Positions 13,190 to 46,483 of a DNA stretch of 64,000 nt are shown piece by piece. Under the pieces are notes generated by a model, which ran no database searches, had not been told where the DNA came from, and saw only the letters and a program-made list of their open reading frames with translations. The translations under genes and the position numbers were made by a program. Each line of letters opens with the position of its first letter. Positions within the stretch are counted from its first letter, which is position 1. The stretch is from NCBI RefSeq assembly GCF_056712565.1, contig NZ_CM160072.1; one strand, 5' to 3'.

Positions 13190-13678
13190 TCATGAATATA
13201 TATTCAATTTTAATAAGTAATTAATTTGCTTGTGCACCAGGGCTGTACGCTTTACCACACGTGGTGCGACCCAAACGATATTGCTGCCAGCAATCACGCC
13301 AAGAATTTCTGGCAAAGCATGGAAATCAAGGATTCGTGCTACTGCCCGACCATATCCGGCGACGGTATGGATAAGGATAAATTCACCATTATGCTCGACA
13401 CTCAGGACCATTTCAGCGACGGATCGACCTGCGTCAGGTGTGGGAAGTAATTGAGGATTCACCGAATAAATTTTTTGTCCTTTTGTATTTCTAATTTTTA
13501 TGACTCCCAGCAATTTCAGTAGTCGTGAAACGGTTGACTGACTGATACTGTCAAAGCCATGGTTTTGCAAATCGCGGCGGATTTCCTCCTGTGAAAGATA
13601 ACTTTTTTCGGTAATCAGGCGCTGACAGACCGCCAGTTGCTTCTTTTCTTTGGCGGAGTAATCATCGTATTCCTTCAT
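13190..13678 (-). CDS. ArgR-family transcriptional regulator, candidate ADI-cluster regulator
   Basis: 162 aa from MKEYDD (RBS aaaggtg upstream); winged-helix N-domain (SQSTVSRLLKLLG) and ArgR-like C-terminal oligomerisation domain. Confidence 0.75.
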   Translation of the reverse strand: MKEYDDYSAKEKKQLAVCQRLITEKSYLSQEEIRRDLQNHGFDSISQSTVSRLLKLLGVIKIRNTKGQKIYSVNPQLLPTPDAGRSVAEMVLSVEHNGEFILIHTVAGYGRAVARILDFHALPEILGVIAGSNIVWVAPRVVKRTALVHKQINYLLKLNIYS

Positions 13679-13793
13679 AATGCACCTTTTATTTATTATT
13701 ACCTGATGATATTTTTCACATTTTATAATGTGAGAGTGGTTCATTTATCACTACACCAGATTTGAAGGCCGCTTTGATAAGCGGCCTGTCGCG

Positions 13794-15197
13794 TTAAATC
13801 ATCGCGGCGATACTCAGCACAATCATATTCAACATCGTGAGAATCAGCAGTAGCGGTGCTACCCATCTCAGATAACGGACCCAGGGTACACGGGCAATCG
13901 CCAGACCGCCCATCACTACCGCAGAGGTTGGCGTAATCAAATTAACCACCCCGGAAGCAGACTGATAAGCGGTCACCACCAGATCGCGTTGTACATGAGC
14001 AAAATCAGCGAGTGGAGCCATTATTGGCATCGTTAACACTGCAAGGCCGGAAGATGAGGGAACCAGAAAAGAGAGCAATACTTCCAGCCAATAGGTCACG
14101 TTGATGAAAACAGTGGTGGAAAGCCCTGAAACCAGATTCTCAGCACTGTGCAGAATTGTGTGCGTAATCATGCCGTTATCCATCACGACCACAATACCGC
14201 GGGCGATGCCGATAATCAGTGCCACACCAAGGAGATCCCGCGCGCCGTCAATAAAGGTACTGGTGAAGGTTTCTTCGCCCATGCGGGCAATGACACCCAC
14301 GATGACCGCAGCTGCCAGAAAGACAGCAGAGATTTCCGCCATCCACCAACCCAGTACCGCTACGCCGTAAATCATAAAGGCAAAGGATGCAGCAAAAAGT
14401 ATCAGGATCGCTTTGCGCGTGGGGGTAAATTCCAGCATCGTTTCTGAACGATTTCCCAGAAAATGCGCCTGGTTTTCAGCCATCTTATCCGCCACGATAG
14501 AGCTTTCCGGACTGTTGCGAACTTTGCGGGCATAACGCATAACCCAGTAAACACAAATCACGTAGCCTACTAACAGCAAAATAACACGCAGCAAAATGCC
14601 CTGAGTAAAGGGGATCCCTGCGGCGTTGGCAGCAATGACGGTAGCAAATGGGTTAATGGTTGAGCCCAGCGTGCCAATGCCCGATCCCAATAACACTGTG
14701 GCGGCAGCGACCAGAGGATCAAAGCGGGCAGCCATCATGACGGGCACCAGCAACGTGTAGAAGGGGAGTGATTCTTCCGCCATCCCATAAATAGTACCGC
14801 CAGCAGCGAAGAGCGCCATCAGGATCGGAATCATCCACTCTTCCCGACCATTAAGGCGAGTTGTCACTCGTTCGATACCGGCATCTATTGCTCCGGTTTT
14901 ATTTACTACTCCCAAAAATCCACCGATGATCAGGACAAACAGCGCGACATCAATCGCTCCCGCAGTGTAGGTTTGATGGTTGTACAAGCCGTCGATGGGC
15001 GCTAACAGGACAGCCGTAATACCCTGTGGTTGCGCCTCAACAGGTGCGTAAGTGCCTGCAACAGGAACTTCCTTTCCCAGTGCGGCATTTGTCACCATCT
15101 GATATTTTCCCGCAGGTACAATCCAGGTCATTGCCGCAACTAACGCAATCAGCACGAACAAGATGGTATAAGCGGTGGGAAATTTGAATTTACCCAT
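13794..15197 (-). CDS. YfcC-family polytopic membrane transporter, candidate arginine/ornithine exchanger
   Basis: 467 aa from MGKFKF (RBS ggag); many hydrophobic helices; sits between arcB-like and argR-like genes. Confidence 0.7.
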   Translation of the reverse strand: MGKFKFPTAYTILFVLIALVAAMTWIVPAGKYQMVTNAALGKEVPVAGTYAPVEAQPQGITAVLLAPIDGLYNHQTYTAGAIDVALFVLIIGGFLGVVNKTGAIDAGIERVTTRLNGREEWMIPILMALFAAGGTIYGMAEESLPFYTLLVPVMMAARFDPLVAAATVLLGSGIGTLGSTINPFATVIAANAAGIPFTQGILLRVILLLVGYVICVYWVMRYARKVRNSPESSIVADKMAENQAHFLGNRSETMLEFTPTRKAILILFAASFAFMIYGVAVLGWWMAEISAVFLAAAVIVGVIARMGEETFTSTFIDGARDLLGVALIIGIARGIVVVMDNGMITHTILHSAENLVSGLSTTVFINVTYWLEVLLSFLVPSSSGLAVLTMPIMAPLADFAHVQRDLVVTAYQSASGVVNLITPTSAVVMGGLAIARVPWVRYLRWVAPLLLILTMLNMIVLSIAAMI

Positions 15198-15253
15198 AAT
15201 GTGATCTCCATAATCACGGGCATACGCCACTCGTCGACGCATGCCCGTCAGGG

Positions 15254-16258
15254 TTAGTCGCCGAGAGTTGCTACCATCACCGCTTTAATGGTGTGCATCC
15301 GGTTTTCTGCTTCATCGAAAACAATGGAGTGGGCAGATTCAAAAACCTCATCAGTTACTTCCAGTCCTTTGAGGCCGTAGGCCATCTCGATCTCGCGTCC
15401 TACTGTGGTGTGCTCATTATGGAAGGCGGGCAGGCAGTGCATAAATTTGACTTCAGGGTTACGCGTGGCAGTAATCACCTGTTGATTGATCTGATAAGGT
15501 GTCATAAGACTCACTCGTTCTGCCCAGGCTTCTTTTGGCTCTCCCATCGAAACCCAAACATCCGTATAGAGAAAATCAACGTCGTATACGCCTTCTTCCA
15601 CATCCTCTGTCAGGGTGATTCTCGCCCCAGTCACGCTGGCGATCTCACGGCATTGTGTTACCAGCGCTTCATCTGGCCAGAAAGATTTTGGTGCCACCAG
15701 ACGGATATCCATCCCCATTTTTGCAGCACCAACCATCAGCGAGTTCCCCATGTTATTTCGGGCATCACCAAGATACGCAAAGCTCAGCTCTGGCAGCGTT
15801 TTGCCTGGCGCATGTTCCAGCATGGTCATTAAATCCGCGAGGATCTGTGTCGGGTGAAATTCATTGGTCAGTCCGTTCCATACCGGAACACCAGCGAACT
15901 CACCTAATTCTTCAACGATATTCTGACCATAACCGCGATACTCAATACCGTCATACATGCGTCCGAGTACGCGAGCGGTATCTTTCATTGATTCTTTATG
16001 GCCGATTTGTGAGCCGCTGGGGCCGATGTAAGTCACCTGCGCACCTTGATCAAAGGCCGCGACTTCAAAGGCACAGCGGGTACGGGTAGAGGATTTTTCA
16101 AAAATCAACGCAATGTTTTTACCGACCAGCGTTTGTTTTTCGTTTCCAGATTTCTTGGCGGCTTTAAGATTGATAGCCAAATCAATCAGGTATTGAATCT
16201 CTGCTGGGGTGTAATCAAGCAGCTTAAGAAAATTACGGTTTTTCAGTGAAGTAGCCAT
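15254..16258 (-). CDS. arcB: ornithine carbamoyltransferase (catabolic, ADI pathway)
   Basis: 334 aa from MATSLK; STRTR and HCLPA motifs; paralog of argI five kb away. Confidence 0.85.
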
Positions 16259-16268
16259 GGGGATGTCC

Positions 16269-17213
16269 TTATAAAAATGGATCAAGCGTGGTTATGGGGG
16301 TATCAAGGCGAATAAGAGTGCCTTTGTCTCCGGCGAGAATTTCCGGACCATCTGCAAGAGAGCCGATCCCTGCAATGCCCCGGCACTGACTAACAAACTT
16401 TGCGCAGGCGGTGACTTTCGGCCCCATAGACCCGGCATCAAACTGCATTTCGTTGAGTAATTCCGGCGTGACCTGGGCCAGCGGGCGTTGGGTTGGCTTG
16501 CCCCAGTCGAGATATACTGCGTCCGCATCAGTGAGGATCAACAAGGCGTCAGCATGGATCTGACTTGCCAGTAGCGCGGCTGAAAGATCTTTGTCGATAA
16601 CCGCTTCAATCCCATGGTATCCATCGGCTTTTTCAACCACCGGAACACCACCGCCACCATTACAGATCACCAGATGATCGTGGGCGATCAGTGTCTGGAT
16701 GGCATCCCGCTCGACGATGCGTTTAGGTTGTGGAGAAGGTACGACCCGGCGGAAAGAGTGACCATCTGCTTTGAAAACCCAGCCTTTTTCTGCCTGTAGT
16801 ACCTGAGTCTGAGCGTGGTCATAAATTGGGCCGATGTACTTAGTTGGGTTACTGAAGGCGGGATCGTTGGCATCCACTTCAACCTGCGTCAGCAGAACGC
16901 TGATTTCACGTTGTGGTAGTTGATTTTTCAGCGCCTGTTGTAGCATGTAGCCGATCATCCCCTGGCTTTCGGCCCCCAGAATGTCGAGTGGATAGGGAGC
17001 GACATGGGCATAGGCGCTATTTTGAAGTGCCAGAAGTCCAACTTGTGGACCATTCCCGTGAACCAGTACAACCCGCCAGTGTTGAGTCAGTTGGGCGATA
17101 GTTTTAGCCGCAAGATCGATATTTTTACGTTGGATTTCTGCTTCGAGTGGTTCGCCTCGTTTAAGCAGGGCATTACCGCCGAGAGCGATAACCAGTGTTG
17201 GTTTGTTTTCCAT
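16269..17213 (-). CDS. arcC: carbamate kinase
   Basis: start placed at [17 protein letters not shown] (RBS aaggaag); amino-acid kinase fold. Confidence 0.85.
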
Positions 17214-17223
17214 GATCTCTTCC

Positions 17224-18447
17224 TTAGATACCGTCACGATGCAAAGGGCAACTCATGCAACGTGCGCCGCCACGTCCGCGGCCTAATTCATCACCGGGGA
17301 TGGGTAAAACGGTGATGCCTGCTTTGTCATATTTTTCGTTAGTCCAGATGTTGCGCTCGTAGCCCACTACCACTCCCGGCCGAAGCGTGAGCACATTGTT
17401 AGCGTCATTCCACTGTTCGCGTTCTGCCTCAAAGGCATCACCCCCCGTGGTGATTAAACGTACCTGGTCAATACCGAGGGCTTTTTCGATAGCATGGAGG
17501 AGTGTGCTTTCTTGAGTACGTTTCAGGCCGCCGTGACCGTCAGGTGTTAGCGTCCAGCAATTAACATCCGGGCGCACAACTTCGGGATAAACCGAGAAGG
17601 TGTCGATATCGATATGAGTCATAACGGTGTCAAGATGCATACAGGAGCGGTGTTTAGGCAGCTCAACAGCGATTACCCGTTCAGCCTGACGATGTTTAAA
17701 CAATGCCTGAGCAAGAAACTCGATTCCTTGTGGCGTGGTGCGTTCAGACATGCCGATCAACACGGCCCCCCGACCAATCACCAGCACATCACCACCTTCT
17801 AACGTGGCGTGGTCATAATTAATATTCTCGTCGCCGAAATATTTAATAAATTCGCCGCCAGCAAATTGTGGATGCCAGCGATAAATAGCGCGTAGATTAT
17901 TGGTTTCACGTTGGCGAGCAGGTTTTGCCATTGGATTAATCGATACACCGTTATAAATCCAGCATGAGGTATCACGCGTAAATAAATGATTCGGTAACGG
18001 CTTCATAATGAAATCATTAATATCGTGGGTATCAACCACCATATTTTTAATTGAGGCGGGAATTTCACTATAAGTCAGCCCACCACTTAAATGACGAGCA
18101 AGGTCCCGGTGTGACATCTCTGCAAGCCAGGTGCGAACGTCAGTAGCAAACGTAGGGCCGAGTCGGTAATCTGATATTTGTGTTTCCAGTAACCAGCTTT
18201 TGGCTTCCGGGATATCCAATGTTTGTGTTAGTAAATCAGTGAGTAACAGAACTTCTATCCCTTGCTGGCGCAGCGTATTGGCGAAAATATCATGCTCTTC
18301 ACCTGCCCGCTCAACGGACAATACATCGTCAAATAACAACTCCTGGCAATTGGATGGTGTTAGACGTTTCAGACTGAGATTTGGGCGATGCAACATAACG
18401 CTGCGTAGTTGTCCAATTTCAGAACCAACATAATGCTTTTCCATCAT
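17224..18447 (-). CDS. arcA: arginine deiminase
   Basis: 407 aa; ADI-family sequence with C-terminal catalytic cysteine region (ARCMSCPL). Confidence 0.88.
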
Positions 18448-37616: not shown

Positions 37617-38636
37617 TCAAAAATCGGCTTTCAACACCACGCGGTAACGCGCCTTACCGTCGCGCACATGCTGGATGGCGTCGTTAATTTTCGACATCGG
37701 GAACAGTTCGGTAGTCGGCGCAACCTTGCTGCGGGCGGCAAAGCGCATCAGCTTACGCAACTCATAAGGTGTACCGGTAGCAGAGCCAGAGACACTGCGA
37801 TCGCCCGCAATCAGCGTAAAGGCCGGAACCGGCAACGGCGTGAGAACCGCACCGACGGTGTGGAAATTACCGCCATACGTCAGCGCCTCAAAATAAGGCT
37901 GCCAGTCGAGGCTGACGTTCACAGTATTGATAATGAGATCAAACTGCCCCGCCAGAGTTTTCAGTGCCTGCGGATCGCGGCTATTCACCACTTTATCGGC
38001 ACCCATCGCCAGTACTTCCTGCTCTTTCGCCGGATTTGAACTAAAGGCTGTCACCTCGCATCCCATTGCGTGCAGAAGTTTTATAGCGATATGCCCCAGC
38101 CCGCCAATACCAATTACCCCAACGCGGCTGGTAGCAGTGATATGGTGCATCAACAGTGGTTTAAAGACCGTGATACCGCCGCACAACAGCGGCCCGGCGG
38201 ACTCGATATCAATATTTTCTGGCAGTGGAATCACCCATTGCCAGTCCGCACGCAACTTCTCGGCAAAGCCACCGCGATTCATAATCGTCGGCACCGCACC
38301 TTGCTCGCAGTTGATCTGATTACCGCTAATACAGGCGTCGCAGTGACCACAGCTACGCGCCGTCCAGCCAATCCCGACACGCTGACCGACCTGCAAACCT
38401 TTATCCTGCGCGGCGCTCCCGAGTGCCACCACGCGCCCAATCACCTCATGCCCGGCAACCAGCGGATATTGTGAAAATCCCCATTCGTTATCGATCATCG
38501 ACAGATCGGAATGGCAGATCCCGCAGTAATCCACCTGCACTTCAACATCTTGTGGCCTCAGCTCACCGGGATCGTACTCATAAACTTCCAGTTCGCCGCC
38601 CGCTTCTTTTGCGGCATAGCTTTTTATCATCGACAT
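37617..38636 (-). CDS. ahr: NADPH-dependent aldehyde reductase (zinc MDR)
   Basis: 339 aa from [21 protein letters not shown] and GHEVIG zinc-ADH motifs. Confidence 0.9.
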
Positions 38637-38831
38637 TTTTTGGTCCTTCTCTGGTGTTGTTTGGGAAGTGTAGAGCATGGCAGGGCGGGGTGCCTGGAGT
38701 GTGACAAAGGTTACACATCGCTGTATGCAATGCTGAAAATTTCAGCACTTAGCGAGGTGCGAGCAAGCTGGCGCTTGCATGGTGGCGTGCGACAGGTATA
38801 ATCCACAACGTTTTCCGCATACCTCTTCAGT

Positions 38832-38916
38832 GCCGAAGTGGCGAAATCGGTAGACGCAGTTGATTCAAAATCAACCGTAGAAATACGTGCCGGTTCGAGT
38901 CCGGCCTTCGGCACCA
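38832..38916 (+). tRNA. leuX: tRNA-Leu (anticodon CAA)
   Basis: 85-nt sequence gccgaagtggcgaaatcggtagacgcagttgattCAAaatcaacc...ggcacca with long variable arm and encoded CCA. Confidence 0.95.
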
Positions 38917-39176
38917 AAAGTATGTAAATAGACCTCAACTGAGGTCTTTTTTTATGCCTGAAATCCAGTGTTTATCTATCTTTCCCGCTATATTAACTCT
39001 CTCAAGGTCAACCGATATCAACGTACATCTACCAACATATGTTGGTACAGATGATGGTATTTCCGGTTCGATAATGCTTGTACCAACAGGGAGGGAATAC
39101 GATGGCATTAACAGATATCAAAGTCAGAGCAGCCAAGCCAACGGATAAGCAATATTAGCTGACTGATGGTGGCGGT

Positions 39177-40367
39177 ATGCATCTGCTTGTCCATCCAAAT
39201 GGTTCTAAGTACTGGCGTTTGCAGTACCGTTATGAGGGAAAGCAAAAAATGCTGGCACTTGGGGTTTATCCTGAAATCACACTAGCGGATGCCAGAGTAC
39301 GTCGTGACGAGACGCGTAAGCTGCTTGCGAATGGCGTCGATCCGGGAGACAAAAAGAAAAATGATAAGGTTGAACAGAGTAAAGCACGAACCTTTAAAGA
39401 AGTCGCGATTGAGTGGCATGGCACCAATAAAAAGTGGTCTGAAGATCACGCCCATCGTGTGCTAAAAAGTCTTGAAGATAATCTTTTTGCAGCGCTTGGT
39501 GAACGTAATATCGCTGAGTTAAAAACTCGAGATTTATTAGCACCTATTAAGGCCGTAGAAATGTCTGGACGTCTTGAAGTGGCCGCTCGTCTTCAGCAGC
39601 GCACTACAGCCATCATGCGCTATGCAGTGCAAAGTGGGTTAATTGATTATAACCCGGCACAAGAGATGGCTGGGGCGGTTGCTTCCTGTAATCGACAACA
39701 TCGTCCCGCGCTTGAATTAAAGCGCATCCCTGAGTTGCTTACAAAAATAGATAGCTATACTGGTAGGCCGCTAACCCGATGGGCGATAGAACTCACTTTG
39801 CTGATCTTTATTCGGTCCAGTGAGCTGCGTTTTGCTCGTTGGTCAGAGATCGATTTCGAAGCGTCTATATGGACTATCCCACCGGAGCGGGAGCCTATTC
39901 CTGGAGTGAAACATTCCCATAGAGGCTCAAAAATGCGTACAACGCATCTAGTGCCTCTTTCAACGCAAGCTCTTGCAATTTTAAAGCAGATAAAACAGTT
40001 TTATGGGGCCCATGACTTGATATTTATTGGTGATCACGATTCGCACAAACCCATGAGTGAGAATACGGTAAATAGTGCGTTACGGGTCATGGGGTATGAT
40101 ACAAAAGTAGAGGTTTGTGGTCATGGCTTTCGAACAATGGCCTGTAGTTCATTGGTCGAATCAGGTCTGTGGTCTCGTGATGCTGTTGAACGCCAGATGA
40201 GCCACATGGCGCGAAATTCAGTGAGGGCCGCGTATATCCATAAAGCAGAGCATCTGGAAGAACGGCGATTGATGCTACAGTGGTGGGCCGATTTTCTGGA
40301 TGTAAACAGAGAAAGGTTTATCAGTCCATTTGAATATGCAAAGATTAATAATCCATTAAAACAGTAA
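39177..40367 (+). CDS. intB: P4-type tyrosine integrase; the ancestral N-terminus upstream (ATG 39102) is cut off by an in-frame TAG at 39156
   Basis: 396-aa ORF with C-terminal tyrosine-recombinase catalytic region (HGFRTMA...RAAYIH); upstream in-frame MALTDIKVRAAKPTDKQY then TAG. Confidence 0.85.
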   Translation: MHLLVHPNGSKYWRLQYRYEGKQKMLALGVYPEITLADARVRRDETRKLLANGVDPGDKKKNDKVEQSKARTFKEVAIEWHGTNKKWSEDHAHRVLKSLEDNLFAALGERNIAELKTRDLLAPIKAVEMSGRLEVAARLQQRTTAIMRYAVQSGLIDYNPAQEMAGAVASCNRQHRPALELKRIPELLTKIDSYTGRPLTRWAIELTLLIFIRSSELRFARWSEIDFEASIWTIPPEREPIPGVKHSHRGSKMRTTHLVPLSTQALAILKQIKQFYGAHDLIFIGDHDSHKPMSENTVNSALRVMGYDTKVEVCGHGFRTMACSSLVESGLWSRDAVERQMSHMARNSVRAAYIHKAEHLEERRLMLQWWADFLDVNRERFISPFEYAKINNPLKQ

Positions 40368-40371
40368 TCAT

Positions 40372-40390
40372 CCCGGGCAAATGCCCGGGA
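40372..40390 (+). terminator. hairpin after intB (cccgggca-aat-gcccggg)
   Basis: perfect inverted repeat immediately after the intB stop. Confidence 0.55.
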
Positions 40391-40539
40391 ATTATTCTAG
40401 GATTATTTTCTTTGTTAAAAAAGACAAACGGTATTAACTGATGTATTTACTATTTACCGCTCCCTGCAGGGGGGATTATCAGAATCCGCGGTTATTCATT
40501 ATTTATATACATTCAATAAAAAAGTAACTGGATTTGCCC

Positions 40540-41445
40540 CTATATTTCCAGACACCTGTTATCACTTAACCCATTACTGGCTTGCTGCCGTAGATATTCC
40601 CGTGGCGAGCGATAACCCAGTGCACTATGCGGATGCCATTCGTTATAATGCTCGAACGCCTCTGCAAGGTTCTTTGCTGCCGTTAACCCGTCTGGTTTGG
40701 GCATGACACTGATGTAGTCACGCTTTATCGTTTTCACGAAGCTCTCTGCTATGCCGTTACTCTCCGGACTCCGCACCGCCGTGCTCTTCGGTTCAAGCCC
40801 CAACATCCGGGCAAACTGCCGTGTTTCATTAGCCCGGTAGCATGAACCATTATCCGTCAGCCACTCTACTGGAGACGCCGGAAGCTCGTTGCCGAAGCGG
40901 CGTTCCACCGCTCCCAGCATGACGTCCTGTACTGTTTCACTGTTGAAGCCGCCCGTAGTGACCGCCCAGTGCAGTGCCTCACGGTCACAGCAGTCCAGCG
41001 CGAACGTGACTCGCAGTTTTTCTCCGTTATCACAGCGGAACTCGAACCCGTCAGAGCACCATCGCTGATTACTTTCTTTCACAGCCACTCTGCCTGTATG
41101 TGCCCGTTTCGATGGCGGTACAGCAGGTTTTCGCTCAAGCAACAGCGCATTCTGGCGCATGATCCGGTAAACACGTTTGGCATTGATCGCAGGCATACCA
41201 TCAAGTTCTGCCTGTCTGCGAAGCAGCGCCCATACCCGACGATAACCATACGTGGGCAGCTCTCCGATAACATGGTGTATACGGAGAAGCACATCCGTAT
41301 CATCAGTGTGACGACTGCGGCGGCCATCCATCCAGTCATCGGTTCGTCTGAGAATGACGTGCAACTGCGCACGCGACACCCGGAGACAACGGCTGACTAA
41401 GCTTACTCCCCATCCCCGGGCAATAAGGGCGCGTGCGCTATCCAC
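40540..41445 (-). CDS. insD: IS2 transposase OrfB
   Basis: 301 aa DDE transposase within IS2. Confidence 0.9.
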
Positions 41446-41768
41446 TTTTTTGCCCGTCCATATTCAACGGCTTCTTTGAGGAGTTCATTTTCCATCGTTT
41501 TCTTGCCGAGCAGGCGCTGGAGTTCTTTAATCTGCTTCATGGCGGCAGCAAGTTCAGAGGCAGGAACAACCTGTTCTCCGGCGGCGACAGCAGTAAGACT
41601 TCCTTCCTGGTATTGCTTACGCCAGAGAAATAACTGGCTGGCTGCTACACCATGTTGCCGGGCAACGAGGGAGACCGTCATCCCTGGTTCAAAGCTCTGC
41701 TGAACAATTGCGATCTTTTCCTGTGTGGTACGCCGTCTGCGTTTCTCCGGTCCTAAGACATCAATCAT
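41403..41768 (-). CDS. insC: IS2 OrfA (HTH)
   Basis: starts [26 protein letters not shown]; overlaps insD in the -1 frame. Confidence 0.85.
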
Positions 41769-42099
41769 CTGCTCTCCAATGACTAGTCTAAAAACTAGTA
41801 TTAAGACTATCACTTAAATAAGTGATATTGGTTGTCTGGAGATTCAGGGGGCCAGTCTAGTAACCTCATAAAAAATCCTGTACTCACAGGGTGATGCGGG
41901 ATAACTGACGTAAGGAGTGCTGCAGGGATTTGATGGTCCCTTGTGCTGATATGAATACGGATATTTTATACAGAATACTTTTCAGTACAAGCGACTGTAT
42001 TACAGTCTGCCATATATGATTACCTGTGATCAGGAAGAATAAGTGGCTGAGGTTTCAAACTGTCTGCCGGTATATTCCTCTCTCCCTTAAAAACCATAA

Positions 42100-43330
42100 C
42101 AGGTTAGTTATCTTCGTCTGTCAGCGGATTGAATGGCGGTATATTTTCAGTACAAATACCGGTCATCCACTGAAAAATACCTGCGAAATGACGGGCACTG
42201 ATTTTTCTACTGACGGGCTGATGAGACGTTATGTCACTGGCGGTAATAATCAGTGGCACACTGTAGCCTCCCTGCACATGACCATAATGATGAACAGGAT
42301 TGGCACTGTCGCTGACCGACAGCCCAAGGCCAGAAAAGTAAAGCATGGCGAAATGACGTGAGTACCGGCGAAGGATACCATCAAGCTGGCCAAGAAAGTT
42401 ATCCAGTTTACTGATGCTGGCGAGGTAACAGGCAATTTTTCGGGGATACTGCTCCAGGTAATTATTCGGCTAGGAGTTAAGGCTGTCACACGGATTTGGA
42501 TGAGAACCCATCATGTGCAGGAAAATTATCTTCGGAGAGGATGTATCCGCCAGCGCACGTTCTGTTTCCTGTAACAACAGTTTGTCATCTGTTTTACGGG
42601 AAGCGAAGCTGCCTTTCTTGAGGAAAGTGGCATGCTCCGCATCAGAAGCAATAACAGAGATGCGTGTGTCATGCCCCCCAGTTTTCCTTGATTGGATATC
42701 CACCATGTGCTGTATCCTGCTTTTGCTGCCAGCGCCACCACATTGTTGCCGGAATCAGGGTTCTGCTCATAGTCATAAATCAGTGTCCGGCTCAGGGAAG
42801 ACACTGTACTGGAGGCTGTCGAGGTATAATCGTCAATAAATAAACCGGGTGCCGTATTCAGCCACGGTGTGGTTGGTACGGGATAGTCATACACTGACAT
42901 ATAATCCCTGCGCACACTCTCACCAGTGACAATAACAATCGTATCATATAACGGTGCTCCCGGCTGGATTTTCCAGTTGTCAGCCCCGTGCTACTCAGTT
43001 GTTCATAACGCTGCATTTCACGTAATGTGTCAGTTGTCCCCACAACTGTTCCTTTAACCATCCGCAATGGCCAACGGTTTACAGAGCATAATACGAATAG
43101 CCGTAGAGCCAGCCAGTTACGGTGGTCGCGATGGTGTGTCCGCCAGAAAATCACCACGAATACCAGAATCGCGGCACTGACCAGAAAATGATAAACAGGA
43201 AACACGGGGCGGTTCACTTTGCTTTCTCCTGTAGTGTTTTCTGTAGGTTCTGAACCGGTTCTAGCGGGGTTGTGAGGCTGATGGCAATCGCCGGGCTCTT
43301 CCTGCATGTTACACTGGTACTGCAAGAGGG
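42100..43330 (-). pseudogene. yjgX: EptA/sulfatase-family phosphoethanolamine transferase remnant, broken into several frames
   Basis: adjacent minus-strand ORF fragments with sulfatase-type motifs (HMMGSHPNPCDSL, VPLIITASD, DYMSVYDYPVP) and an upstream membrane-domain fragment. Confidence 0.6.
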
Positions 43331-43649
43331 GGCCTTCGCTCCTCTGACATTACTCAGTATTTTCACTACTACACCCCATCTGCCATCCATAACAACCGAT
43401 TCACCCCCTCGCGAGGCGTTGTTGCCCGTCACCCGGACAGACACCGTTATGGATTTCTCTTGTTGCACGATCGATCAATTGTTATGCATGCTGACACCAC
43501 AACCCCGGTGGGTATGACCGATGCCTTTCTCACTCTCTTCCCGGTCATCGTCGGCCTTCCCCGTTATTGTGGCGTGTCAGCACCCTCGACGGCATTTCGA
43601 TGGCTGCTCAGTGTTCACTCACGTTACGGCCCGCATAACCCGTTGACTT

Positions 43650-44015
43650 CCTGAAGAAGTCGTTTCAGGGAGAGATTCAGCCCTTTTGTTACCTCCTGGA
43701 CCGCTTCTTGTCCTTCCAGTCGGAGCGAGAGTTAGCCGGGGCGGACTTTCACCGACGGAAAGATCGTGCATTTCAAGGCACACACAACAATATCTGCGAG
43801 CGTGCTATCCGTCCGGTCGTTATGGGACGAAAGGCCTGGTTGTTCGCTGGTTCACTGGTGGCCGGGAACCGCGCGGCACAGATAATGAGCCTTCTGGGAA
43901 CCGCAGTCTGGAGCCACATGCTTGGCTGACGGACGTCCTGACGCGTCTGCCGGAGTGGCCGGAGGAGAGGTTGGCTGAGTTACTGCCTCTTGAGGGCTTT
44001 ACCTTCTTCGGGTAA
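43650..44015 (+). pseudogene. yjgZ: IS66-family transposase C-terminal remnant (109-aa ORF plus overlapping frame)
   Basis: two overlapping frames carry ERAIRPVVMGRKAWLFAGS...AAQIMSLLGTA and HAWLTDVLTRLPEWPEERLAELLP, the conserved C-terminal IS66 transposase region. Confidence 0.6.
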
Positions 44016-44515
44016 GTGATACCTGCCGTCAGGTGTTTGTGCACCGGGCCATAACCTGCAGTTGGGAATTGAACGCCTGACAACAGGAAATGAGCTAGAG
44101 CAGTAAACACGCGGGCTGACAATGGGTCAGAATATGAGTTAGCCCGGCGTTATTCCTGGGGTCAGTACTTCAGATCTAGCCTCCGGTACCAGACTAGCTA
44201 GCCCCTACGCAACCAAATAAATCAACCATCGTCAGAGTGCAATCGTTCATATACACTGTCGGTGATGCGCTAAAAAATGCGTTAATGTTGAGTTCCTCGA
44301 ACCCTTACCAATTAAGGGACATAGCCAGATACGCAACTGGCTGATGCAAGCAGTCTAATGTCTTTAGATCCGCTGGCCTGCGGGCATGACAATGTCAAAC
44401 AGTCAAAGATTGTGGCGTTGACGGTCAGTCTTGGGGACAAAAAAGCTCAGTATTCTCGTTGGCAACCAGATAATTTAACAGTTGATGCTGAAACGAAATA
44501 GGCATCTTGGTTCTG

Positions 44516-45941
44516 TAATGCCAGTCAGTTAAGCAACTGACTGGCTCTTTTTCGGGGCTGTGGGGTATTTCCAGGGCCTCTCCTTTACCACTCTCGGGAA
44601 GGCCCTTTCCCTTCTTGTCGGTAATTTCACAAGTTGTCCCATACTTGCAAGATCGCGCATCAGCTCCGGTATACGTCCCGGTGAAGCGCCCTGCAATGTT
44701 ATCAGCATTCTCATCACCATTCCGCATGATTCTGAGAAACTCAGTTGATTCGGCCAGTAACCTTTCAGATGTTCCGCCATTTTAATCATCTGATATCTCA
44801 CCAGATTATAAGCCAGTAAGACACCCCACAGCTCTTGCTCCACAAGCTCCGGCTTTTTACTTCTCAGCGTCAGCCTGCTCCGTTGCATCGTCTGTTTTAT
44901 CTCCCTGTATCCCAGTTCGATTTCCCAGCGATGACTGTACAGATCCCCCATTTCTCCTCCGGGGAAGCGCATGGCGTCCGTCATCGACGTCAGCAGATGG
45001 CAGACTTTTCCTTTGCGCGTCACGGTCAGCAGGCGGGCAGTCACTTCATTTCCCAGTCCCGGCCACTTTTTTCGTGCCTGCGGGCTGGTTTTCAGCTTCA
45101 CCAGATGATCGCCTTTACCCAGTTTTCTGATCTCTTCATATTGCGCTCCCTTTCTGAGAGGTATCATCCAGTGGCGGTGTTCTCCCGCCAGGCTCCAGGC
45201 ATTTAACAGTCCCAGTGAGTAATAACCTTTATCCATTAACGTCAGAGTGTTATCGCCGGTTTGTTCTATAAGTTGCTCAGCAAGCTCATTTTCGCTGTTC
45301 TTCATCGTGCCGAAGGCTGCAGCCGTCAGCAGATGGCTGGTCAGTTCCATCTGGCAGACCATTTTGACCTGCGGGTAGAGCGCCGGGTTCCCGGCATGTG
45401 TCTGGCGGGGGAAGGCTGCATCGTTCTCTGGTGTATCCGGTGTGCGCCAGAACACACCATCGATGGCCAGCAGGGTCAGGCCGCACCAGTGCGGATGCGG
45501 CGTGGCGTTATGCCAGAGCTGCGCTGTTTTCGTGAACACGCGGCGGACAGCCTCACTTCCCAGGCGCTGGCGGGCCTGAATAACGGCACTGGGGGCAACG
45601 AAGGGGCGATTGCCCGGCAGCATGATGTCCAGGCGATTCACAATCTGGTGAAGAGGTTCTTTACGCTCAAGCGCCATGCCAACAATACACCAGACCATCA
45701 TTTCGAGGGGAAGACGGCGCTTGCGTAGCGTTACAGTACCTGATTCGGCAAGGCAACGAGAGATGAGTTCGGGGTCGAGGTAATCCCCCAGAGAAGTCAG
45801 TGGGTTACGCAGAGAATCGTAACGGGATACCAGATCAAGAGCCTGTCCAATGTGCATAAAAAAATCCGGAAACAAGTGAGCGTTTCCGGATTCTTACACA
45901 GCCACTGGATCGGTCAACTGATCCTTAACTGATCGGCATTA
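44516..45941 (-). mobile_element. IS4, 1426 bp, flanked by 12-bp direct repeat atcttggttctg
   Basis: ends taatgcc...ggcatta; identical 12-mer at 44504-44515 and 45942-45953. Confidence 0.9.
44529..45875 (-). CDS. insG: IS4 transposase
   Basis: 448-aa ORF filling the element. Confidence 0.9.
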
Positions 45942-46050
45942 ATCTTGGTTCTGGTGTTTGTAACAAACTATCAGCTACAAAAATATGCTCAATTTGTGAC
46001 ATCAGTAACAAAACGCGTTTTGTTATGTGGATTGCTTGTTTTTTGATCTG

Positions 46051-46073
46051 GTATAACAGGTATAAAGGTATAC
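46051..46073 (+). promoter_or_regulatory. Nan box: three direct GGTATA repeats (NanR operator type) upstream of yjhB
   Basis: ggtataacaggtataaaggtata read directly about 410 bp upstream of the yjhB start. Confidence 0.65.
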
Positions 46074-46483
46074 AGAAAAGCAAAGAAATACTGCAAAGGA
46101 AAACAGCTATAACGTAAGCTAAAGTAATAACCTCTCAGTCTTTCCTCATTTGACGAAGGGAGTTTTATTCAACCTGAACGGACTACGAAAATGAGCACAA
46201 TGAATAAGTCAATTTTTGAAGCAGGGTTGAACTGTGCCAGTGGTGGAATATCTGGCGAACATTGTTTTTTGTTGGTGACCCAAAACTGTAGGTGGGTATC
46301 AGTTTTATCTTTCATAGAGTGAAATATGTTAAGAAGAAATGGAGGAAAAGATTGTACTGATTAGGTATTGATAACAATCAATAGTACTGGCGTATTTGAA
46401 GACAATATAATTATTTCTGGATATTGTTGAGGCTCCCTAATATTTACTTTAAGGGCTATATTAGAATAACACAGGAAACAAAT

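Follow-up and report, generated by a model that had tools for sequence, protein, structure and literature searches.

A complete IS2 element flanked by a 5-bp target duplication downstream of the leuX-linked integrase gene

IS2 transposes by the two-step copy-out/paste-in pathway of the IS3 family (PMC3219604, PMC3299598). An A6G motif is the site of a -1 programmed frameshift in this element (PMC3219604). The right inverted repeat (IRR) is the donor end (PMC3299598), and the left inverted repeat (IRL) is the recipient end in step I as well as the supplier of the -10 box of the minicircle junction promoter (PMC3219604, PMC3299598). Residues 39-48 are reported to include the binding sequence of the OrfA repressor (PMC3299598). 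Wild-type IS2 is self-limiting, its low activity being attributed to the weakness of its promoter, to repression by OrfA and to the rarity of the frameshift (PMC3219604), and its targets are reported to fall preferentially in or between intrinsically bent segments (PMC3299598). The described copy to which the present locus has to be compared is IS2K of Escherichia coli K-12 (insC6/insD6, NC_000913.3 4498181-4499511), which sits in the same spacer downstream of leuX and an integrase gene as the element considered here. The two copies share a length of 1331 bp, ends of 42 and 41 bp, a TA at the IRL end and a CA at the IRR end, and they also have in common an identical OrfA, the A6G site, a DD(35)E transposase and a duplication of 5 bp.

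The window, by which is meant the whole stretch of 64,000 nucleotides that was analysed, contains a complete IS2 of exactly 1331 bp at 40529-41859, its genes lying on the minus strand, as established both by reading the sequence and by script. Identical GTAAC pentamers abut the element at 40524-40528 (left copy) and 41860-41864 (right copy), such that window 40524-41864 reads GTAAC / TGGATTTGCCCC ... GGGGGCCAGTCTA / GTAAC. The side at 40529 begins with TGGATTTGCCCC, which is the right end of IS2, and the side at 41859 finishes with GGGGGCCAGTCTA, which is the complement of the left end, TAGACTGGCCCCC. An A precedes each GTAAC and the right-hand A is the terminal base of IS2; 1331 bp are assigned to the element and 5 bp to the duplication because the flanks of the K-12 copy are unambiguous. 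GTAAC occurs 50 times on the plus strand of the 64-kb window, giving a chance match at a fixed position of about 1 in 1000. The pairing of an IS2 right end with a left end occurs once within the window, which therefore holds a single IS2 and no composite element.

In the IS orientation, the 42-bp left end (IRL, 41818-41859, minus strand) starts with 5'-TAGACT and reads TAGACTGGCCCCCTGAATCTCCAGACAACCAATATCACTTAT, and the 41-bp right end (IRR, 40529-40569, minus strand) finishes ...TTAAGTGATAACAGGTGTCTGGAAATATAGGGGCAAATCCA with a CA-3' terminus. Each repeat carries one change from its K-12 counterpart, namely L42 in IRL (41 of 42 positions match) and R27, a T to C change, in IRR (40 of 41 positions match), the latter falling in a stretch where IRL and IRR are themselves dissimilar. 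Identity to K-12 extends over the outermost 41 bp of the left end and the outermost 26 bp of the right end, and a candidate -35/-10 pair for the junction promoter, Pjunc, can be picked out by eye within these identical stretches. The inner edge of the left end is marked by an 18-bp palindrome, ATCACTTA-TT-TAAGTGAT, at window 41809-41826 on the minus strand (IS positions 34-51), the centre of which is TT in the window copy as against AA in K-12 (L42-43). This palindrome overlaps residues 39-48, the putative OrfA-binding region (PMC3299598). In both forms the palindrome is ATCACTTA-NN-TAAGTGAT with L42-43 at its exact centre, so that reverse-complementing the K-12 version gives the variant, a change of the hairpin-loop inversion type.

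The coding capacity of the element is complete. The orfA gene (insC; 41403-41768, minus strand) encodes, from its ATG, a 121-aa HTH regulator that is identical to K-12 InsC, and orfB (insD; 40540-41445, minus strand) encodes 301 aa with the DDE catalytic domain and eight substitutions relative to K-12 InsD. The latter gene overlaps orfA in the -1 phase and both reading frames are open. The sole A6G (AAAAAAG) of the element, at 41445-41451 on the minus strand (IS position 409), is found inside the overlap, and a -1 fusion at this site is predicted to give an open 409-aa OrfAB without a stop. The Pfam domains HTH_Tnp_1, which is assigned to orfA, and rve, rve_3 and HTH_21, which are assigned to orfB, are all recognised in OrfAB above their cut-offs. 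The NCBIfam models for the IS2 transposase TnpB (NF006918; 709.4 bits against a cut-off of 597) and the IS2 repressor TnpA (NF006928; 238.8 against 229) are likewise exceeded, as is NF033516 for IS3 family transposases (281.9 against 160). The DD(35)E triad corresponds to D240, D306 and E342 of OrfAB, the second D and the E being separated by 35 residues, and is untouched by any of the OrfB substitutions. By the ISfinder convention, nucleotide identity of roughly 95% or more denotes the same IS or an isoform, and the element is 97.7% identical to IS2K (1301 of 1331 positions, with 30 nucleotide differences). Length and ends, ORF layout with A6G, HTH and DDE domains, protein models, the 5-bp duplication and nucleotide identity, all features of the sequence, thus agree in placing the element in IS2 (IS3 family, IS2 group). 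Its RefSeq annotation is 'IS3 family transposase, programmed frameshift', and the product WP_102384962.1 is named 'IS3 family transposase' only, as against 'IS3-like element IS2 family transposase' for K-12-type copies. An RNA stem (GCGCACGCG...CGCGUGCGC, with a GC-rich hairpin within) begins 6 nt past A6G (window 41340-41470, minus strand). Its predicted fold of -49.6 kcal/mol reaches only z = -2.0 relative to shuffled sequences, and the stem could be a candidate stimulator of the frameshift.

An artificial empty site, made by joining a 405-bp left flank, in which one GTAAC was kept, to a 400-bp right flank, was searched for in 5,426 complete E. coli genomes. The uninterrupted locus was found in 1,152 of these as one ungapped piece at 99.9% identity, and the genomes with the empty site include E. 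coli B (REL606 and BL21), strain C and the K-12 strain NCM3722. Three genomes were checked base by base (REL606, NCM3722 and MG1655) and each has a single GTAAC, in the context ...AATAAAAAAGTAACCTCATAAAAAA...; REL606 and NCM3722 read ...CATTCAATAAAAAAGTAACCTCATAAAAAATCC... with one GTAAC, and MG1655 does likewise at that position. An empty allele without GTAAC or with two, or one with non-contiguous flanks, was sought among the uninterrupted strains and was not found. The same insertion at GTAAC is found in 122 genomes; the 30 that were listed are all 100% identical over both element and flanks. In MCJCHV-1, one of the occupied genomes, GTAAC is likewise duplicated, and 805 of 805 flank bases agree with the empty alleles of REL606 and NCM3722. 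The sole flank mismatch, at window 40193, is located inside the integrase gene, far from the junction; it was considered as a haplotype marker linked to the insertion and rejected, since MCJCHV-1 combines the insertion with empty-allele flanks.

IS2 and one extra GTAAC are consequently all that the occupied allele has beyond the empty one, which makes this a simple insertion that was not rearranged afterwards, and no observation speaks against this model. The favoured reading, to which a probability of about 95% is given, is that a single IS2 transposition into the spacer duplicated GTAAC, that nothing has been rearranged since, and that the copy is structurally competent to transpose. The initial annotation had described identical gtaac pentamers around a 1331-bp IS2 at 40524-41864, two intact ORFs and a clean transposition free of rearrangement. 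The pentamers were confirmed by sequence reading and script, and the frames of 301 aa and 121 aa are indeed open. The clean transposition is upheld by the single-GTAAC empty alleles, the contiguous flanks and the 805 of 805 matches in MCJCHV-1. The comparison with uninterrupted strains that it had proposed was carried out and came out in its favour, with 1,152 genomes and one GTAAC in each of the three checked by base.

Relative to IS2K, the differences are unevenly placed. Third codon positions hold 19 of the 25 coding differences, an excess that fits a functional lineage under purifying selection, and OrfAB is identical to its K-12 counterpart at 401 of 409 residues, the eight OrfB changes being mostly conservative. 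In or beside the ends, the only differences are L42, L43 and R27. Of the 30 differences, 24 fall within IS positions 777-1305 (window 41083-40555), for which a chi-square test gives p ~7e-6 with a breakpoint that was chosen post hoc; the clustering suggests a mosaic or recombinant IS2 subtype. With respect to location, IS2K is inserted 79 bp further right of the GTAAC site, in the opposite orientation and with the duplication CCTTG, in contrast to the minus-strand window copy with its GTAAC. Counts of the respective junctions give 122 genomes for the window copy and 348 for IS2K, with laboratory K-12 derivatives among the matches listed.

Numerous E. coli chromosomes and plasmids carry the exact 1331-bp sequence, with 100% identity. 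Six other loci with the identical copy were examined, and five of the six have their own 5-bp duplication, all of them different. These are a second site in the HS13-1 chromosome (CTGAT), a site near umuDC in the MS8345 chromosome (CTCAA), the IncHI2A/IncN plasmid pSJ_255 (AACGC), the Salmonella Anatum IncI-gamma/K1 plasmid pR17.0809_88k (NZ_CP100679.1 39463-40793; ATCAT) and the inside of a fimbrial usher gene in SCU-116 (GTGTG). The sixth, in ATCC 8739 (NZ_CP043852.1 2754179-2755509), has no duplication (TAGTC vs GTGGA), which implies that an IS-mediated deletion or a recombination of two copies took place subsequently; such copies are thus open to rearrangement after insertion, which the window copy did not undergo. 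Of the five loci with duplications, two are on conjugative plasmids and one is on the chromosome of HS13-1, which is the closest genome to the window. No target consensus is evident among the seven duplications, namely these five together with GTAAC and CCTTG. Of 7,734 matching E. coli records, 725 have a copy of at least 99% identity as their best match, and the same holds for 174 of the best-scoring 5,000 plasmid records. The Salmonella Anatum copy lies between ISEcp1 and blaCMY-2 on a conjugative plasmid, separating the resistance gene from ISEcp1, which usually supplies the promoter of an adjacent blaCMY-2. The ATCC 8739 copy adjoins microcin genes (mchF and a colicin V family gene).

As the identical sequence is found at loci with their own duplications, the sequence type has transposed several times, and recently. 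The element had been called probably active in the initial annotation. For the subtype this is reasonable, given that all the sequence requirements are present and that five of the six loci have duplications; for the window copy itself, what stands is structural competence only, and it may be expected to transpose at the natively low frequency of IS2. Three cis positions, L42, L43 and R27, differ from the K-12 element that has been studied, and of these L42 and L43 are in the putative OrfA-binding region.

Two other accounts of the insertion are both highly improbable. The flanking GTAAC pair might be a coincidence, the IS having arrived by homologous recombination or a larger rearrangement and not by direct transposition; the roughly 1 in 1000 chance of a 5-bp match is small but above zero, and ATCC 8739 does offer an identical copy with no duplication. 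This account is refuted by the alleles themselves, for occupied and empty forms differ by IS2 and one GTAAC alone, with flanks matching at 805 of 805 bases. The initial expectation was of a different kind, namely that the element is the K-12 IS2K next to intB, that the window is simply K-12 and that nothing departs from the reference annotation. The neighbourhood is indeed the same, with leuX, a P4-like integrase, IS2, a yjgX-type pseudogene and IS4, but MG1655 has an uninterrupted single GTAAC at the site used in the window, and E. coli HS13-1 matches the window at 99.99% identity over 50 kb. Identity with IS2K was accordingly rejected on position, orientation, duplication and 30 base differences in 1331. 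Judged by these same features, the window insertion is an event independent of IS2K and represents another sequence type. That the element is neither the K-12 IS2K insertion nor of the K-12 sequence type had been overlooked in the initial annotation.

A third account, which is unlikely though far less so than the previous two, concerns mobility and not origin. It holds that the window copy, whilst intact, is an effectively immobile passenger of its island and that copies elsewhere, or a common master copy, are the donors. The 122 genomes with the same site occupied, 30 of 30 listed being identical in element and flanks, speak for such passive inheritance, as does the self-limitation of IS2 through its weak promoter, OrfA repressor and rare frameshifting (PMC3219604). 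The comparison with MCJCHV-1 over window 26660-62058 points the same way. About 143 differences are found in the 7.3 kb of core at 26.6-34 kb, as against seven in the ~28 kb at ~34-62 kb, and this tract of low divergence comprises the idn operon, ahr, leuX and the island including IS2. The abrupt drop in divergence looks like a recombination tract that has carried the IS2-bearing island haplotype between lineages, and from the near-identity of the tract next to diverged core it follows that this IS2 copy has been spread passively, together with its flanks. Against immobility, there is no visible defect in any required part, the exact sequence has inserted at five or more other sites, and HS13-1 has a second identical copy with its own duplication. 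A single transposition that left a structurally competent copy remains the preferred reading.

The surroundings of the insertion are shared with other strains, window 38000-62900 being 100% identical to HS13-1, SF-468, APEC strains and others. The genes follow one another in the order ahr, leuX, the P4-type integrase gene, IS2, a phosphoethanolamine-transferase pseudogene, IS4, nanXY, IS911, IS600 and fec. The tRNA-Leu(CAA) gene leuX is at 38832-38916, the leuX-linked P4-type integrase gene at 39159/39177-40367 and the phosphoethanolamine-transferase (ept) pseudogene at 42020-43202 on the minus strand. IS2 has inserted between the terminator-like hairpins (40371-40390, plus strand; 41890-41877, minus strand) of these two convergent genes and interrupts no annotated feature; the insertion is for this reason probably without effect on the host. 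A promoter scan found two candidates where 2.4 were expected in shuffled sequence, which is no excess, and an Rfam scan of 38500-43500 at an E-value of 1 or below returned the tRNA only, with no curated frameshift element or sRNA at the insertion. Downstream of IS2, the island at 43786-55360 is rich in IS material, with a transposase fragment (43786-44015), an intact IS4 insG (44529-45875), a frameshifted IS911 (from 49623), IS600 within the same span and an ISEc52 fragment (~53.3-55.4 kb), and is followed by the fec operon. Elsewhere in the window, and unrelated to IS2, an arginine deiminase cluster (arginine repressor, YfcC-family protein, argF, arcC and arcA; ~13190-18440) sits between pyrBI-pyrL and a second argF, according to annotation transferred from HS13-1.

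The ~320-bp spacer between the integrase gene and the ept pseudogene (window 40368-42019, with IS2 in place) has received two independent IS2 hits, 79 bp apart and in opposite orientations. The GTAAC target is flanked by two A6 tracts and local GC is 40%, compared with 50.6% for the whole window. An AT-richer target flanked by A6 tracts is consistent with the reported preference for bent DNA (PMC3299598), and two IS2 insertions no more than 79 bp apart would fit the preference for bent, A-tract-flanked targets that has been suggested for IS2. A wider proposal is that the spacer is a preferred landing site for IS2, perhaps by virtue of bent DNA, and, separately, that the element belongs to a mosaic subtype, with the centre of its OrfA-region palindrome inverted, which is now spreading on conjugative plasmids, including one with an insertion between ISEcp1 and blaCMY-2. 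This is put forward tentatively and is on balance doubtful.

The steps by which such an insertion would arise are drawn from published work on IS2, whilst the structure of the element, its GTAAC repeat, the empty allele and the mobility of the sequence type were established here. A rare -1 ribosomal slip at A6G would join OrfA to OrfB and thereby produce the OrfAB transposase (PMC3219604, PMC3299598). OrfAB would cleave only the CA-3' right end and join it beside the donor-inactive, TA-ended left end, giving a figure-of-eight that host replication would convert into a minicircle. The abutted ends of the minicircle, together with a 1-bp spacer, would form the strong promoter Pjunc. The extra transposase would then cut both ends and insert the circle at a 5-bp staggered cut, repair of which would leave a direct repeat and so account for the GTAAC pair. 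OrfA would act as a repressor in this scheme.

The IS2 element, its 5-bp duplication and the mechanism are textbook matters, and the window insertion is already annotated in more than 100 RefSeq genomes. The insertion is real but ordinary, and it matters little beyond correct annotation. The additions are an event independent of IS2K in the same small spacer and a minority, mosaic-looking and demonstrably mobile subtype. In practical terms, the locus is not to be equated with K-12 IS2K, and the insertion could serve to mark a lineage or a recombination tract among the E. coli genomes that share the leuX-island haplotype. The minority sequence type is itself of note as one that is mobile across chromosomes and plasmids.

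Within the IS3 family, IS911, IS3 and IS150 share with the element described here the overlapping ORFs in phases 0 and -1, a slippery site of the A6G type, the HTH and DDE (rve) domains and short target duplications. The duplications of IS911, IS3 and IS150 are 3-4 bp long, as against the 5 bp seen for IS2 in the window. Unlike these relatives, IS2 has a donor-inactive, TA-ended left end and a mandatory 1-bp spacer in its minicircle (PMC3219604, PMC3299598).
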